NCBI RefSeq assembly: GCF_000091665.1
Contig: NC_000909.1
Coordinates: 850,712-882,711 of the forward strand
Direction of reading: 5' to 3'
DNA: 32,000 bases
DNA from: Methanocaldococcus jannaschii DSM 2661
GTDB taxonomy: Archaea; AGJL01; Methanococci; Methanococcales; Methanocaldococcaceae
Shown here piece after piece: positions 2,656 to 32,000 of this stretch (positions within the stretch are counted from its first letter, which is position 1; every line of letters starts with the position of its first letter). The notes under the pieces were generated by a model. That model made no database searches, was not told the DNA's origin, and was given only the letters and a program-made list of their open reading frames with translations. The translations under genes and the position numbers were made by a program.

Positions 2656-3549
2656 ATGGAAATATTTAAACTCTTAAGAAAAGATAGAAAGATGTTATTT
2701 CTAATGTTTATTGGAACAGTTTCTTTTTTATTTATATTTATCCCATTTCTTAAATTTCAGATGATAGGTTCAAGTCATAAAATTAATGCATATCCAAGTT
2801 TATCAGCTGTATGTGGTCTTTTATTGGGTCCAATTTATGGATTTTTTGCAGTTATGTTGGTAACATTAATATACTTTTTTTTAAATCCAAAAGCATTTTA
2901 TTTTGGAATTTATTCTTTAATACCTCCTACATTAGCGGTTATATCTGCTGGAGCGTTATCTGAAGGGAAATGGAAATATTCAGCTATAATTTTAATTGTG
3001 GGTTTATTACTATTTTATTTAACAGATGTGGGGAGGGTAGCTTTTTATTACCCATACCTTTCAACTCTTGCTTTATTACTTATCCTCATTTTTAGAGAAA
3101 AAATAAGTAAATTGTTGTTTAGTAAAGATTGGAAAAAAATGATAGTTGGGGCTACAATTTTATCATTCTCATCGGTGATGACAGACCATCTATATGGTTC
3201 AATTTTGGGAATTGTATATTTACATTTGCCAGCAGAGGATTACATTTCAGTAATTCCTCTCTTTATTAAAGAGAGATTAATAATGACTGTAATAGGTGCA
3301 TTTTTTGTAATTTTTGCAATAGAAATTAGCAAATGTTTCTTAAAAAATGCTACAAAATTAAAGGAAAAATTATTAAAAAGTTATATTGATAAAGAAATAA
3401 AAATAAACTGCAAAAATATGTTGAATGTAGATGAAGAGTTATTAAAGAAATATAATGTTAAAATACCGTCGGAAGAAGAACAGAAAGAAATTTTAAAGAC
3501 ACTTGTGGAAGTAGTGGTGTTCAATAACGATAAAGATGAAAATCGATAA
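2656..3549 (+). CDS. polytopic membrane protein (about 6 TM, possibly ECF S-component-like) with a charged C-terminal tail of about 70 aa
   Basis: 297-aa ORF with successive hydrophobic segments through residue 225, then a Lys/Glu-rich tail. Function was not recognised with confidence. Confidence 0.7.
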   Translation: MEIFKLLRKDRKMLFLMFIGTVSFLFIFIPFLKFQMIGSSHKINAYPSLSAVCGLLLGPIYGFFAVMLVTLIYFFLNPKAFYFGIYSLIPPTLAVISAGALSEGKWKYSAIILIVGLLLFYLTDVGRVAFYYPYLSTLALLLILIFREKISKLLFSKDWKKMIVGATILSFSSVMTDHLYGSILGIVYLHLPAEDYISVIPLFIKERLIMTVIGAFFVIFAIEISKCFLKNATKLKEKLLKSYIDKEIKINCKNMLNVDEELLKKYNVKIPSEEEQKEILKTLVEVVVFNNDKDENR

Positions 3550-4817: not shown

Positions 4818-5025
4818 AATCCCACGCTAAATTTATTTTAATAAAATTTACTAAACTTTGACAATTTATTTTCTTCCATTTATTTCATTATGGTTAGGTT
4901 TATATAGTTTAATACTTTAGATTACTACCCGTATTTAAAATTTACCTACAATTACTTATTTTTAGATTTGAATATTTTTAAATAGTGTTATTAGTAATCT
5001 TTTTATACCCTATTAAGACATAAGT

Positions 5026-7400: not shown

Positions 7401-7633
7401 TTTAAAACCTCTTAGAGGTCTGATTTTAATAAAAAGATGAATAGATACCAAAAGTATAAGATAGTTATTTCCATCCTCCAAGAGGTCTTATTTTAATAAA
7501 GAGTATCTTTCTCCTACACTGACTCCTAATATCGTTTCCATCCTCCAAGAGGTCTGATTTTAACTAAATTCTTTTTTTAACTTTTTAAGGTGAGAGGATG
7601 TTTTTTCCATCCTCCAAGAGGTCTGATTTTAAC
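7401..7633 (-). CRISPR. orphan mini-CRISPR array: 3 good repeats plus 1 degenerate 30-nt repeat
   Basis: The plus-strand repeat TTTCCATCCTCCAAGAGGTCTGATTTTAAC is exact at 7604-7633 and 7535-7564. The copy at 7468-7497 has 2 mismatches and the copy at 7401-7430 has 6. Spacers are 37, 37 and 39 nt and unique. Degeneracy increases away from the 7634 side, so transcription is inferred on the minus strand (GTTAAAATCAGACCTCTTGGAGGATGGAAA). Confidence 0.9.
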
Positions 7634-11878: not shown

Positions 11879-11950
11879 GCCCTGGTGGTGTAGAGGATAT
11901 CACGGGGGACTTCGGATCCCCAAACCCGGGTTCAAATCCCGGCCAGGGCC
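11879..11950 (+). tRNA. tRNA-Arg (anticodon UCG), no encoded CCA
   Basis: Manual cloverleaf: acceptor GCCCTGG/CCAGGGC, anticodon stem GGGGA/TCCCC, loop CTTCGGA (U33, UCG, G37), T arm CCGGG-TTCAAAT-CCCGG. Confidence 0.75.
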
Positions 11951-11979
11951 TCATTTAATTTATATTGGAAGTTGATACA

Positions 11980-12681
11980 ATGGAAACCTTGATAAGATTA
12001 TTCGTATCTATCTTAATTATATGTGTATTGGCATTGATGATTAAAAAGAGTAGATGCTTAGATAATGAGGGAGTCATTGGATCATCTATTATGGGTTTTA
12101 TATTACTTTATTTCTGTGGATTTAAATATTTGATATTACTTCTATCTTTTTTTATTTTAGGGGTTTTGGTGAGTAGAGTCGGTTTAGAAAAAAAGAAAGC
12201 TAAAAAAATGGATGAAACTTGTAGAAGTTTAAAAAATGTATTAGCAAATGGTTTAATTCCAATATTATTTGCAATTTTAGCTATATTTGGATTCAACTGG
12301 GCTTTAATTGGATACATATCATCAATAGCTGCTGCTACATCAGATACTTTTTCTTCAGAACTTGGAATATTATCTAACGAAAAGCCGAGATTAATAACTA
12401 CCTTCGAAGTTGTTGAAAAAGGAACTGATGGAGCAATTACAATATTTGGTACATTAGCTGGAGTCTTAGGAGCGTTTTTAATAGGGTTGTTTGGATATTT
12501 ACTATTTGGTGATATTAAAATTGTTTTATGTGGCACAGCTGGTGGAATAGCTGGGAACTTAGCTGATAGCTTAGTTGGGGCATTATTTGAAAGAAAAGGA
12601 ATTTTAAATAATGAACACGTTAATTTAATAGCTACTATTGTTGGTGGAATAATTGGAGTTTTGATTTATTGTACTCTGTAG
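11980..12681 (+). CDS. DUF92/COG1836 (TMEM19/VTE6-like) integral membrane protein
   Basis: Multi-TM protein with Gly-rich conserved segments (SSELGILS..., GTDGAITIFGTLAG, GNLADSLVGA). The start is ambiguous (TTG at 11965 or ATG at 11980). Confidence 0.7.
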   Translation: METLIRLFVSILIICVLALMIKKSRCLDNEGVIGSSIMGFILLYFCGFKYLILLLSFFILGVLVSRVGLEKKKAKKMDETCRSLKNVLANGLIPILFAILAIFGFNWALIGYISSIAAATSDTFSSELGILSNEKPRLITTFEVVEKGTDGAITIFGTLAGVLGAFLIGLFGYLLFGDIKIVLCGTAGGIAGNLADSLVGALFERKGILNNEHVNLIATIVGGIIGVLIYCTL

Positions 12682-12718
12682 GGGTTAAAATACATCAAAA
12701 TAACTAAATGATTTAATC

Positions 12719-12737
12719 ACCGAAAAGTTTATATATA
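12719..12737 (+). promoter_or_regulatory. stable-RNA BRE/TATA promoter (ACCGAAAAGTTTATATATA) for the tRNA-Thr/Pro/Tyr unit
   Basis: Near-identical motif at 13041-13059 and, on the minus strand, at 23091-23107. It lies about 31 nt upstream of the tRNA-Thr 5' end. Confidence 0.7.
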
Positions 12738-12767
12738 ACATCTGTAATTTACTAATACTGCAAACGA

Positions 12768-12844
12768 GCCTCGGTGGCTCAGCCTGGTAGAGCGCCTGAC
12801 TTGTAATCAGGTGGTCGGGGGTTCAAATCCCCCCCGGGGCTCCA
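12768..12844 (+). tRNA. tRNA-Thr (UGU), CCA encoded
   Basis: Acceptor GCCTCGG/CCGGGGC, anticodon arm CCTGA-CTTGTAA-TCAGG, T arm GGGGG-TTCAAAT-CCCCC. Confidence 0.92.
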
Positions 12845-12858
12845 TTCTCTTCTTCAGT

Positions 12859-12936
12859 GGGCCTGTGGGGTAGCCTGGTCTATCCTTTGGGATTTGGGAT
12901 CCTGAGACCCCAGTTCAAATCTGGGCAGGCCCACCA
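12859..12936 (+). tRNA. tRNA-Pro (UGG), CCA encoded
   Basis: Acceptor GGGCCTG/CAGGCCC, anticodon loop TTTGGGA (UGG, G37), T arm CCCAG-TTCAAAT-CTGGG. Confidence 0.88.
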
Positions 12937-12944
12937 CTTCGTGT

Positions 12945-13021
12945 CCGGCGGTAGTTCAGCCTGGTAGAACGGCGGACTGTAGATCCGCATGTCGCTGGTT
13001 CAAATCCGGCCCGCCGGACCA
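12945..13021 (+). tRNA. tRNA-Tyr (GUA), CCA encoded
   Basis: CCGGCGGTAGTTCAGCCTGGTAGAACGGCGGACTGTAGATCCGCATGTCGCTGGTTCAAATCCGGCCCGCCGGACCA has the C1:G72 pair. It matches my memory of the M. jannaschii tRNA-Tyr used for genetic code expansion. Confidence 0.97.
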
Positions 13022-13040
13022 TCTCCCATTTATGGGGAGA

Positions 13041-13059
13041 ACCGAAAAGTATATATATG
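13041..13059 (+). promoter_or_regulatory. stable-RNA BRE/TATA promoter (ACCGAAAAGTATATATATG) for the tRNA-Lys/5S/(tRNA-Asp) unit
   Basis: Same motif as 12719-12737. It is preceded by the hairpin TCTCCC-ATTTAT-GGGAGA (stems 13023-13028 and 13035-13040). Confidence 0.7.
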
Positions 13060-13101
13060 AGAAATGCGATATGTTTGAAACGCGCACGAGCTAAGGGCTG
13101 A

Positions 13102-13178
<77 letters not shown>

Positions 13179-13188
13179 CTATTTCCTT

Positions 13189-13308
13189 TGGTACGGCGGT
13201 CATAGCGGGGGGGCCACACCCGAACCCATCCCGAACTCGGAAGTTAAGCCCCCCAGCGATGCCCCGAGTACTGCCATCTGGCGGGAAAGGGGCGACGCCG
13301 CCGGCCAC
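13189..13308 (+). rRNA. 5S ribosomal RNA
   Basis: A GC-rich 120-nt segment with conserved 5S blocks (CCCATCCCGAACTCGGAAGTTAAGC, GAGTACTG). Its terminal segments are complementary and it is followed by an oligo-T tract. Ends are accurate to a few nt. Confidence 0.92.
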
Positions 13309-13352
13309 TTTTTATTATTTTAAATTCTCAAGGTAATCCTTGGCATTACTAT

Positions 13353-13430
13353 GCCCTGGTGGTGTAGCCCGGCCTATCATACGGGACTGTCACTCCCGTG
13401 ACTCGGGTTCAAATCCCGGCCAGGGCGCCA
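13353..13430 (+). tRNA. tRNA-Asp (GUC), CCA encoded
   Basis: Acceptor GCCCTGG/CCAGGGC, anticodon arm CGGGA-CTGTCAC-TCCCG, T arm TCGGG-TTCAAAT-CCCGG. Confidence 0.92.
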
Positions 13431-22792: not shown

Positions 22793-22804
22793 AAAATAAA
22801 AAAA
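22793..22804 (-). terminator. oligo-T tract after the duplicated tRNA 3' end
   Basis: The minus strand reads ...GCCCTACCATTTTTTTATTTT. Archaeal termination commonly occurs at oligo-T. Confidence 0.4.
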
Positions 22805-22962
22805 TGGTAGGGCGGCGGGGATTCAAACGAACCTTTTAGTAAAAGGTTCATCAAAACAGGATACATTGCCTCGCTTTGCTCGGCAATGTCTCTTAGATTA
22901 CAGTGGGGCTGAACGTAGTGAAGCCCCGCTCTGGGTATCCCAATAGGGCGATAGCCCTATGG
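22805..22962 (-). ncRNA. candidate structured RNA / integration remnant ending in a copy of the tRNA-Ile 3' end
   Basis: About 50% GC against about 30% background. Hairpins (plus-strand coordinates): 22829-22849 (9 bp), 22863-22889 (8 bp), 22903-22929 (8 bp), 22943-22960 (7 bp). A possible long-range pair is GGATAC (22859-22864) with GTATCC (22935-22940). The 3' end (minus strand) repeats GAATCCCCGCCGCCCTACCA of tRNA-Ile. Strand is inferred from the tRNA-like end. Confidence 0.4.
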
Positions 22963-22974
22963 AAATAAAAAATA
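22963..22974 (-). terminator. oligo-T tract immediately after tRNA-Ile
   Basis: The minus strand reads ...CCCTACCATATTTTTTATTTCC. Confidence 0.4.
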
Positions 22975-23052
22975 TGGTAGGGCGGCGGGGATTCGAACCC
23001 CGGACCACTCGGTTATCAGCCGAGCACTCTAACCAGGCTGAGCCACCGCCCT
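22975..23052 (-). tRNA. tRNA-Ile (GAU), CCA encoded
   Basis: Minus-strand cloverleaf: AGGGCGG TG GCTC AGCCTGGTTA GAGT G CTCGG CTGATAA CCGAG TGGTC CGGGG TTCGAAT CCCCG CCGCCCT A CCA. Confidence 0.93.
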
Positions 23053-23090
23053 ACAACCACCAGAAGCAAAAATTAAATAATAATAAGTAG

Positions 23091-23154: not shown

Positions 23155-24399
23155 TTATTCAGTTGGAAATGGTGGCAATGGAGGTAGTGGGAATGGTGGT
23201 GTAGGTAATGGTGGCAATAAATCCGCCTCTCCACTAAATGGGACTTCCCCACTGCCTTCAATATATGCACTTCCAGATATTTCAGCAAAAACTTCTTCTC
23301 CACTTAATTTTCTAAGGATTTCATATCCCATCTTATTAATCGGTATATTTACTTTAACAGTTACTGGATTTTCTCCTGGTGTTATTACTATATTTGATAC
23401 CTCTCCTCGTCCTAAACTATGACCTTCATCATCAAACATATTTAAGATTATTTTATCGATTGTTATACTCTCTGAATTTGGATTATCTATTATTAAATCT
23501 ACATCCATAGAAACATATTTTAAATTTATTTTTTCTCCATTTTCCATTTCTATATTTACACCAATGTCTGGAGAGATTCCATTTATTGATGCTAAAAAAC
23601 CTGGATTCATAGCTAATTTTGTAATTATAATACTATTACTGGGTTTTATATCATCCACATATACTTCTATTTCTGAAAACTGAGTTTGTGTTTGTTGTAA
23701 GTCATTGCTTTCATAATTATTATCATACTCATCATAATTTTCGGATTCTCCACTGTTGTATGCAGTCCCTTCCTCAACATATACAGTTTTAGATGCTAAA
23801 ATTTTTCCATTATCTTCTGCTGTTATTGTGTGATAACCTGGCTCATAGAATACACACTCTACAATCCCGTATACATCATCTAATGTTCCAATGTAGTTGC
23901 CATCAACATATATGTCAATTCCTGCTAACCCTCCAACTATTGGGTCAATGACTTTAATATAATACAACATTTGTTCTTCTATTTTATCAGGAATAGTGCC
24001 ATCTGGATAAGTTATTTCGATATAATAATTATATGCTGGTTCATTATTATAATTTACTTCTGACTCTCCAACATTAGTCATGGCATTTTCATTCTCTTCA
24101 TTAAAATTACCATTGGTCTGTTCATAATTTTGATTACTTTGTAAAGGATGATTTTCTTGATTTTTAATTTCTTTATTTTCATAACTTTGAATATTCTGTG
24201 TTGATTGACTTTCTTTTTTATTTTCTACATTATTAACATTTTGATTTTCTTGATTTATAGGTTTTTCAGTATTTTCTCCATTATTCGTATTTGAATTAAT
24301 ATTTATATCTATCTTTTCTGGAGTATTCACACACCCACAAGCTAAAACCAAAATAGAGAGTATGCTAAAACAAACTAAAGCTTTTCTTATCGTGTCCAT
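23155..24399 (-). CDS. secreted or lipid-anchored protein: signal/lipobox, Asn/Gln/Glu-rich linker, beta-rich middle, LEA_2/WHy-like domain, Pro-rich tail
   Basis: Signal CFSILSILVLACGC. Low-complexity residues about 35-110. DLIIDNPNSESITIDKIILNMFDDEGHSLGRGEV...ITPGENPVTVKVNIPI fits the LEA_2 (NPN) pattern. C-terminus LPPLPTPPFPLPPLPPFPTE. I place the start at the ATG at 24399 after AGGTGA; the track GTG at 24408 lies inside that RBS. Confidence 0.75.
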   Translation of the reverse strand: MDTIRKALVCFSILSILVLACGCVNTPEKIDININSNTNNGENTEKPINQENQNVNNVENKKESQSTQNIQSYENKEIKNQENHPLQSNQNYEQTNGNFNEENENAMTNVGESEVNYNNEPAYNYYIEITYPDGTIPDKIEEQMLYYIKVIDPIVGGLAGIDIYVDGNYIGTLDDVYGIVECVFYEPGYHTITAEDNGKILASKTVYVEEGTAYNSGESENYDEYDNNYESNDLQQTQTQFSEIEVYVDDIKPSNSIIITKLAMNPGFLASINGISPDIGVNIEMENGEKINLKYVSMDVDLIIDNPNSESITIDKIILNMFDDEGHSLGRGEVSNIVITPGENPVTVKVNIPINKMGYEILRKLSGEEVFAEISGSAYIEGSGEVPFSGEADLLPPLPTPPFPLPPLPPFPTE

Positions 24400-24425
24400 T
24401 GTTATCACCTAATTAAATTCCACTT

Positions 24426-31658: not shown

Positions 31659-31854
31659 ACCTCTCCCCAAAATTTAGTTTCTATTGAAATTTATATCTAA
31701 AAAGTTTCGCTTTCTATTAAATGAAAATTATAGGATTTCATATTCAAAGCATTAAGATTTATAAGCAACTATATATCGTTATTTACCTATTTATATACTA
31801 AGAGACATTAAGGGACTGAAAGTCCATTTAATGCATCGTTTTGATGAAACTTTC

Positions 31855-32000
31855 TTAAAGTTTCACTGCAAGTATTTTTATCTTTGCAGGATAGTTATTT
31901 ATATATTTTGATAAAGTTTCATTTGGAATCCTTGCCTCTAATTTAGATAAAATCCTCTCCCTAAAATGCCTTGAAAATCCATAAGGTAGAGAGTTTTTTA
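31855..32000 (-). CDS. 3' end of an unidentified gene running off the window end
   Basis: Own translation of the minus strand: ...[46 protein letters not shown], stop at 31855-31857. The stop is embedded in the hairpin GAAACTTT-CTT-AAAGTTTC. Confidence 0.45.

Follow-up and report, generated by a model that had tools for sequence, protein, structure and literature searches.

In this study we focus on an insert beside the tRNA-Ile(GAU) gene of the archaeon Methanocaldococcus jannaschii DSM 2661, at positions 22793-23052 of a 32,000-nt stretch of its chromosome (NC_000909.1, positions 850,712 to 882,711; hereafter the window). The insert is probably one copy of a dispersed, non-coding, modular and non-autonomous hairpin element of the genus Methanocaldococcus, which duplicates its target and is reshuffled by homologous recombination. 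Such an element is best classed with the small repeat elements of prokaryotes; neither "new RNA gene" nor "decayed provirus" is a fitting label.

The insert amounts to 170 nt: first a T-rich trailer, then hairpins over about 136 nt, and last the 21 nt that repeat the tRNA end (Table 1). Read in the sense of the tRNA, the locus runs from the tRNA and its CCA through T ATTTTTTATTTCC, hairpin a, TGG GATACC CAGAG, hairpin b and a joiner named J to hairpin c, T ATCC TGTTTTGAT, hairpin d, GTTT, GAATCCCCGCCGCCCTACCA and then TTTTTTTATTTT. Two exact occurrences of the 21-mer ATGGTAGGGCGGCGGGGATTC are present, at 22804-22824 and at 22974-22994, as a preliminary description of the locus had reported, and a 20-mer within it finds only the same number of matches in the window (2) even with up to 3 mismatches, against 0 expected from 100 shuffles. 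The repeat runs on imperfectly into the A/T-rich trailer (repeat family D1, 41 nt, 85% identity), which agrees with the duplicated terminator flank of that description, and the extra match noted there after a short insertion corresponds to GGTTCG recurring beyond TTT. An imperfect mimic of the T arm, GGTTCG-TTT-GAATCC, stands just before the second repeat. The two repeats with their trailers are here called DR1, which belongs to the working gene, and DR2. A T-rich run resembling an archaeal terminator stands between the tRNA gene and the hairpin element, and a gene for a 651-aa DinG/XPD-like helicase flanks the locus.

The second tRNA end is neither a tRNA gene nor a pseudogene: ARAGORN and the Rfam tRNA model call one tRNA only, and the fragment in DR2 begins at the T-loop residue G57, with no acceptor 5' strand, D arm or anticodon arm. 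Its exclusion as a tRNA in the preliminary description was therefore correct, and so was the recognition of a GC-rich island, with a GC fraction of 0.47 in the core (22825-22960) and 0.50 over 22793-23052 against 0.31 for the whole window. That no open reading frame (ORF) is present was also essentially right, the sole one being of 43 aa (22959-23090), mainly antisense to the tRNA.

Table 1. Features of the tRNA-Ile locus, of the second copy in the window, and of the gene-end duplicates flanking copies of the element. Locations are window positions or the contig concerned.
Feature	Location	Strand	Details
Intact tRNA-Ile(GAU), CCA encoded	22975..23052	-	ARAGORN; Rfam tRNA 68.5 bits
DR1: last 21 nt of tRNA (T-loop G57 through CCA+T) and T-rich trailer ATTTTTTATTTCC	22961..22994	-	exact 21-mer repeat; copy belonging to working gene
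Module a: hairpin ATAGGGC-TATC-GCCCTAT, flanks CC/GG	22940..22962	-	six stem variants, all perfect Watson-Crick; stem ATAGGGC/GCCCTAT at 22943-22960
GGATAC (5' strand of possible closing helix), conserved CAGAG and module b hairpin GGGGCT-TCACTACGTTC-AGCCCC	22903..22939	-	near-invariant in six aligned copies; R1 97-113 bits on all; stem GGGGCT/AGCCCC at 22905-22927
Joiner J, CTGTAATCTAAGAG, single-stranded	22890..22903	-	invariant in alignment of copies
Module c: hairpin (A)CATTGCC-GA-GC-AAA-GC-GA-GGCAATG(T), tandem G.A pairs, then conserved ATCC	22859..22889	-	4 two-sided pair changes; 92% of cells paired; stem CATTGCC/GGCAATG at 22863-22889
Conserved GTTTTGAT and module d hairpin GAACCTTTT-ACT-AAAAGGTTC, then GTTT (element 3' end)	22825..22858	-	compensatory C-G to A-T change; stem GAACCTTTT/AAAAGGTTC at 22829-22849
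DR2: displaced duplicate of tRNA 3' end (21 nt) and native T-rich trailer	22793..22824	-	flank TTTTAGAT matches tRNA trailer of empty sites in sp. 28A, sp. 16A and L008
Second, partial, AT-richer member (J, c-like hairpin, ATC, GTTTTGATGAA, d hairpin)	31798..31865	+	R2 63 bits, E ~1e-11
Duplicate of tRNA-Ile end	window		21 nt and trailer
Duplicate of SMC-like gene end	L014		ENGLSKVIGIRL and ENGLSKVVGIRL, each followed by stop
Duplicate of RFC small subunit gene end	L016, L036		57 nt, NERIQLSALLAKMALMG(R/K) and stop, twice
Duplicate of cfbD end	L017, L036 (M. vulcanius)		51 nt
Duplicate of cfbD end	L029 (M. fervens)		33 nt
Duplicate of first eight codons of 307-aa gene	L010 (sp. 28A)		29 nt

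The preliminary description had offered as its first reading that the repeats are att-like traces of an integration into the tRNA 3' end, and as regards the repeats this was right. Methanocaldococcus sp. 28A (L007), Methanocaldococcus sp. 16A (L011) and the ENA metagenome contig L008 carry tRNA-Ile beside the same helicase gene without the insert, the tRNA standing directly after that gene in L007 and L008. The tRNA trailers of these empty sites match the flank beyond the fragment (CCATTTTTTTATTTTAGAT) and not the trailer that follows the intact tRNA (CCATATTTT). The downstream copy with its flank thus matches the ancestral trailer, and the fragment in DR2 is therefore the displaced native 3' end. 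The same site is filled in the metagenome-assembled genome (MAG) FK190211_WC_175 (L012), found by a genome scan with the tRNA 3' 20-mer, and in L015 and L018, found by a metagenome scan with a 21-mer of the core. The tRNA itself is shared at 77-78 of 78 nt with L012 and L018, and the trailer after it starts CCATA in all three filled lineages and CCATT in native trailers.

When 1 kb of the helicase gene is used for a neighbour-joining tree, the window, L012 and L015 form one clade, sister to sp. 16A and sp. 28A. This single filled clade fits one old insertion and points to an event in the ancestor of the three sampled lineages, in which the element entered tRNA-Ile between T-loop and trailer and the part of the gene from G57 to the terminator was duplicated. 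In their three pairwise comparisons the element is 94%, 87% and 89% identical, against 94%, 89% and 88% for the helicase coding sequence and 80-89% for the AT-rich spacer, and its identity is at least that of the spacer in 5 of 6 comparisons. The 24 nt ending at the CCA of the fragment (the 21-nt repeat and 3 nt of the element) are identical in the window and L018 and carry 3 substitutions in L012.

The tRNA-Ile/helicase interval of sp. 16A holds a different insert of about 100 nt (L011, ~4895-4985), with perfect 16-bp terminal inverted repeats (AATAGGACTTTCGCAG...CTGCGAAAGTCCTATT), an inner hairpin and ATAGG...CCTAT ends like those of hairpin a; it resembles a miniature inverted-repeat transposable element (MITE) or the MJRE repeats considered below. 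The helicase frame reads into this insert and ends ...MSQFRIGLSQE in place of ...MSQFKN. Separately, the exact 20-nt archaeal tRNA-Ile 3' end also occurs in a Gemmatimonadales MAG (L013, 2410-2429), and may reflect a similar tRNA end or a chance match.

The core of the insert holds the four strong hairpins that had been described earlier. Its folding energy was compared with that of shuffled sequences on both strands, giving z = -5.0 and -4.1 with 0 of 200 shuffles as good; a long copy of the element reaches z = -7.7. The long-range GGATAC/GTATCC helix of the preliminary description is possible, but it and the third hairpin have two bases in common. Terminal inverted repeats are absent from the window copy; in long copies, hairpins resembling one another stand close to the two ends.

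Comparison of the copies shows that the pairing is maintained while the sequence changes. Across the alignment of J-c-d, pairing holds in 93.6% of cells and falls to 27-44% once the partners are slid; five pairs have changed on both sides, and only 3 of 500 shuffles reach the observed covariation score. The stem variants of module a, which include GGGC/GCCC, GGGGC/GCCCC, GGAGC/GCTCC and GAGGG/CCCTC, always pair perfectly, and module d shows its compensatory change both in L012 and in the second window copy. The distal part of module c is wholly swapped in other copies, with the GCATT...AATGC base retained. Distal stems thus vary at fixed positions, while the joiners CAGAG, CUGUAAUCUAAGAG, AUCC and GUUUUGAUGAA are invariant; CTAAGAG of J is moreover the usual 5' start of the other members (L014, L017, L029, L036 and the second window copy). 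These compensatory changes uphold the earlier claim of conserved structure, and support a structural constraint on the hairpins, as RNA or as folded DNA, compensatory changes being equally expected of hairpins used as folded DNA. Wobble pairs, read by eye, single out no strand (three cases antisense-only, two sense-only), and the copies stand in both orientations, 4 of them sense and 2 antisense relative to the genes beside them.

Two covariance models, R1 (b-J-c) and R2 (J-c-d), recognise the copies of the family with E-values of 1e-25 to 1e-5. The metagenome scan with the core 21-mer had also given three non-tRNA loci (L014, L016 and L017), and the models found further members in L010 (sp. 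28A), in L029 (M. fervens), twice in L036 (M. vulcanius M7), and in the partial second copy of the window, in whose d hairpin a minus-strand ORF terminates. A perfect TTTATATA box lies just upstream of this second copy. A weak R2 match in L011 was discarded, as it lies within a TPR coding region. Altogether about 7 sites were seen in at least 6 genomes. Apart from tRNA-Ile, the family occupies the ends of at least four genes: it stands after cfbD, RFC and SMC genes and before a gene of 307 aa, in M. vulcanius, M. fervens, sp. 28A and metagenome contigs, that is at unrelated loci and with presence or absence varying across species, as a dispersed repeat would.

The modules keep the fixed cyclic order a, b, J, c, d, and the set carried varies by copy, even between copies at one site. 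At tRNA-Ile the copy reads a-b-J-c-d. The long form, of about 215-260 nt, reads J-c / a'-e-f-b-J-c'-(d) / inverted a, module a recurring inverted at the 3' end of long copies, and the basal form, found after the RFC gene of M. vulcanius, is 70 nt of J-c-ATCC-inverted a. The internal direct repeat of the long form (J-c ... J-c') could collapse it to the basal form. Both kinds of element 3' end lie 0-6 nt from a hairpin foot. Extra modules inside elements are bracketed by repeats of 6-10 nt of ATGCATCC (L014, ~1380-1450; L016 versus L036), which suggests that modules may be gained or lost at this palindromic spot.

Four independent Logan assemblies (L002, L003, L004 and L006, with identical helicase) break 30-31 nt, or about k-1, into the element from DR2, and because all four break at this same distance we infer that the 30-mer at its 3' end has a further occurrence in that strain, beside other sequence. 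The copies of L016 and L017, which belong to one genome, are 98.5% identical, against 94% for orthologous copies between genomes; ectopic conversion or recent copying is therefore indicated.

Around every copy whose bounds are clear, the end of the local gene is present twice, the duplicate varying in length from 21 to 57 nt (Table 1), and the version contiguous with the gene preserves it whole. At cfbD the reading frame continues into J, giving the C-termini ...DYMLRGTAEH in M. vulcanius and ...DYTLRDAVQPL in M. fervens. The site is empty in M. jannaschii, FS406-22, M. bathoardescens, sp. 28A and sp. 16A, as their CfbD proteins stop at ...DYALE or ...DYALK. A further variant (protein P0268; L031, ~3040-3065, ENA contig k141_319503) ends in ...DYMLSKI, encoded by TATATGCTAAGTAAGATTTAA, where a J-like CTAAG is kept with no element after it. 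This end looks like the scar of an imprecise loss of the element.

The two duplicates at a site have both evolved as coding sequence. Over seven coding pairs, 33 of the codon differences are synonymous and 9 nonsynonymous (P ~1e-6, even on the assumption that one copy evolved freely), most of the nonsynonymous ones sitting where DR1 merges into J. The RFC pair of M. vulcanius differs at 11 of 57 positions, all synonymous, and its cfbD pair is identical at 41 of 42 up to the DR1-J merge. M. vulcanius has a close relative in the genome that holds L016 and L017 (identity 94.7% for the RFC body, 93.6% for cfbD and 94% for the element). At the RFC site the two genomes differ at 12 of 57 positions in DR1 against 13 of 300 in the preceding 300 nt (Fisher P = 9e-5), and at only 5 of 57 in DR2. 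With DR1 far more divergent than the gene body, the RFC gene end has therefore been exchanged with another lineage; the edge of the exchange lies within ~38 nt of the left boundary of the repeat, and the 36 nt before DR1 are invariant in all lineages. A mosaic comparison at cfbD between L017 and sp. 16A is suggestive and noisy. Microhomology is seen at several junctions: J has TAAGAG against native TTAAGAG or TTGAAAG near the stop codons, GGTTC occurs at the tRNA and TATGG at the SMC gene.

As regards the surroundings of the RFC small subunit gene, family members flank both of its ends in M. vulcanius and in the L016/L017 genome. The gene contains inteins in some of the L016, L032, L033 and L036 genomes, and none in M. 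fervens and sp. 16A.

The model that we favour is that of a non-autonomous DNA element which would be copied into a gene end with duplication of tens of target bases, either through the filling-in of widely staggered breaks or through a switch of template during replication, at microhomologies like TAAGAG, GGTTC or TATGG. The survivors would be only those insertions whose duplicate regenerates a complete gene end. The hairpins would probably be recognised by an enzyme acting in trans, as folded single-stranded DNA or as RNA. Later homologous recombination among duplicates, copies and lineages would excise, homogenise or collapse the element, and move it to the same site elsewhere.

Several observations weigh against this model. 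No gene for a transposase, an integrase, a RAYT-like protein or any other candidate enzyme lies beside the window copy, no genome-wide search having been made, and we know of no prokaryotic transposition that gives target duplications of 21-57 bp. Only about 7 insertion sites were seen, and the assembly breaks are the sole basis for inferring copy number. Between most duplicates the divergence is 8-25%, even where copies of the element agree at 98.5%; the present copies therefore did not make these duplicates afresh, and the model needs the later recombination that it includes. Finally, the wobble pairs are mixed, and covarying stems linked by invariant single-stranded joiners resemble a functional RNA more than they do a typical MITE.

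The main rival, possible although rather unlikely, is a small circle that carries a gene-end copy and a hairpin module, comparable to a bare attP, and recombines with the homologous gene end of the chromosome at the left edge of the repeat, by means of a recombinase acting in trans or of host homologous recombination. The end borne by the element would become the working one and the native end would be displaced downstream, as happens with proviruses that target tRNA genes and with phage 21 at icd. The family would then be, with the same doubt attached, a very small integrating element: a module of 70-260 nt addressed by its copy of a host gene end, targeted by homology and not by site, replacing the gene end and leaving the native one silent, its few hairpins being the whole cargo and the substrate of a trans-acting nuclease or recombinase or of the host recombination machinery. 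The RFC site fits this proposal, as the working DR1 is foreign there and the displaced DR2 tracks host divergence, with the switch at most ~38 nt from the left edge, and the coding-type substitution history of both duplicates agrees with it too. So does the tRNA repeat, which starts inside the T-loop and whose displaced copy is preceded by the T-arm mimic; repeats of 21-57 bp are typical of archaeal att sites, and Williams is said to have described the T-loop in 2002 as a crossover sublocation for tRNA integrases. However, the five unrelated targets have no recognisable common core at the crossover edge, so that one site-specific recombinase is unlikely, and a new gene could be colonised only after capture of its end. 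Allelic recombination in the invariant 36-nt block would moreover leave the same sharp edge at RFC, and neither a circle nor a recombinase gene was seen.

That the dispersed copies are functional units of a structured non-coding RNA gene family, with the flanking repeats as by-products of how the copies arose, is improbable in our judgement. The covarying stems, invariant joiners, variable distal stems, strong fold z-scores and GC enrichment in a 31% GC genome would all suit an RNA. However, a search of Rfam at gathering thresholds, and down to E<=10 for the window region and E<=1 for two long copies, was passed only by the tRNA itself. Next best on the element comes permuted tmRNA, whose 17.9 bits (gathering threshold 47) rest on the tRNA T arm, and the long copies give only mir-1256 (24 bits against 70); the families HgcC, HgcE, HgcF and HgcG, to which the preliminary description had looked, were among those with a negative result, as were tmRNA, ribozymes, and C/D and H/ACA sRNAs. 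The copies also stand in both orientations, differ in module content even at one site, overlap coding ends and alter protein C-termini, their wobble pairs favour no strand, and neither a scan nor direct reading found a consistent promoter or terminator across them. The second reading of the preliminary description, a non-coding RNA with a tRNA-like CCA tail, likewise finds no support, given the 3 substitutions in 24 nt of L012, the duplicates of protein-gene ends that replace the tRNA fragment elsewhere, and the T-rich run that separates the element from the tRNA.

Readings of particular motifs as known RNA elements were dropped by eye, and Rfam gave none of them: a C/D box (UGAUGA without a matching CUGA), a K-turn (G.A pairs without the K-turn bulge), and H/ACA, hammerhead and tetraloop-receptor readings of the conserved motifs. 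Splicing of the element with use of the downstream duplicate, which might account for the coding-type conservation of both duplicates, is unlikely, as a terminator-like T run precedes the element and no bulge-helix-bulge pairing was seen by eye. Off-target integration by the CRISPR proteins Cas1-Cas2 was likewise rejected, since the repeat lengths, 21-57 nt, do not follow any ruler and the insert belongs to a structured family that is conserved.

The remaining proposal, that a large virus or plasmid integrated in tRNA-Ile and was then almost wholly deleted, has the classic footprint of a tRNA 3'-end direct repeat and empty sites in its favour, and is nevertheless very improbable, since the core of about 140 nt, in place of being the remnant of a deleted element as the preliminary description supposed, is itself the unit of a dispersed family that recurs at non-tRNA sites, always alone and at 70-260 nt, since the 136 nt of non-coding hairpins between the repeats hold no element genes, since the insert has kept coding-like identity across 11-13% host divergence, and since the comparison with mobile elements gave no plasmid, phage or viral match. 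In that comparison BLASTN of the short and long forms against plasmids and phages found nothing, as did exact-pattern scans of viral contigs (IMG/VR) with three core motifs. The hairpin-c 17-mer had 10 viral matches, none fitting R1; the one that was read, L019, is an unrelated GC-rich tandem repeat.

Among the other features of the window, a 417-aa ORF without Pfam match (23155-24408, minus strand) adjoins the promoter side of the tRNA. It has a hydrophobic N-terminal segment, long low-complexity stretches rich in Asn, Glu and Gln, and a proline-rich tail (PPLPTPPFPLPPLPPFPTE); synteny on this side of tRNA-Ile is unlike that of sp. 28A. At least 3 CRISPR repeats (Rfam CRISPR-DR39) lie at 7467-7633 on the plus strand with a spacing of 67-69 nt, and a cluster of tRNA-Arg, Thr, Pro, Tyr, Lys and Asp genes encloses the 5S rRNA gene (13192-13306) at 11879-13430, also on the plus strand.

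Inserts of this kind rewrite real proteins, namely the C-terminus of CfbD, which acts in a step of F430 synthesis, and a helicase end. For annotation they carry a warning, in that neither a provirus nor a new RNA gene need be present where a partial tRNA adjoins a GC-rich island. Islands of high GC within the AT-rich genome of a hyperthermophile are what led to the Hgc RNAs (HgcC, HgcE, HgcF and HgcG) in GC-content screens of M. jannaschii, and the element shares this trait with them but matches no Hgc family in Rfam. With integrative elements that are directed to tRNA 3' halves or gene 3' ends and bring a replacement end (those with archaeal integrases of SSV or pNOB8 type, and phage 21 at icd), the family shares repeats of 20-60 bp from gene 3' ends, an intact gene, a start in the T-loop and a foreign working end (at RFC). 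It differs from them in that the whole insert is 70-260 nt with no integrase or cargo, and in that one core is found at several unrelated targets, one of which is a gene 5' end.

The likeness to the REP/BIME sequences of enterobacteria, which are associated with RAYT, and to bacterial MITEs such as Correia and RPE is one of form. These are also GC-rich imperfect palindromes at gene ends, mosaics of modules in varied orientation, non-autonomous, and able to be read into proteins. However, REP/BIME give no target duplication and MITEs one of 2-10 bp, against 21-57 bp reproducing a gene end in the hairpin family, whose joiners moreover are invariant while the stems covary, and which has no RAYT-like or helper gene beside the window copy.

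The nearest comparison within the genus is with MJRE1-3, the palindromic repetitive elements of M. jannaschii (Suyama, Lathe & Bork, FEBS Lett 2005, cited in PMC2229807 and PMC2996958). As far as these accounts describe them, they are likewise short, non-coding, palindromic and multi-copy, and some copies lie within gene ends with the genes surviving. The cfbD site of M. jannaschii, the one site checked, lacks the hairpin element. The MJRE elements reportedly average about 100 nt, and the abstract of the study that described them is said to make no mention of long gene-end duplications. The hairpin element family may belong to the MJRE repeats, to which we liken it by description and not by consensus sequence. 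Small palindromic repeats are known in bacteria and were reported once in M. jannaschii; the present family makes their movement in archaea tractable, because its insertions have precise bounds, because filled, empty and scarred alleles exist in cultured species (carriers M. vulcanius M7 and M. fervens AG86; cfbD-empty M. jannaschii, FS406-22 and M. bathoardescens), and because the duplicates record recombination between lineages.

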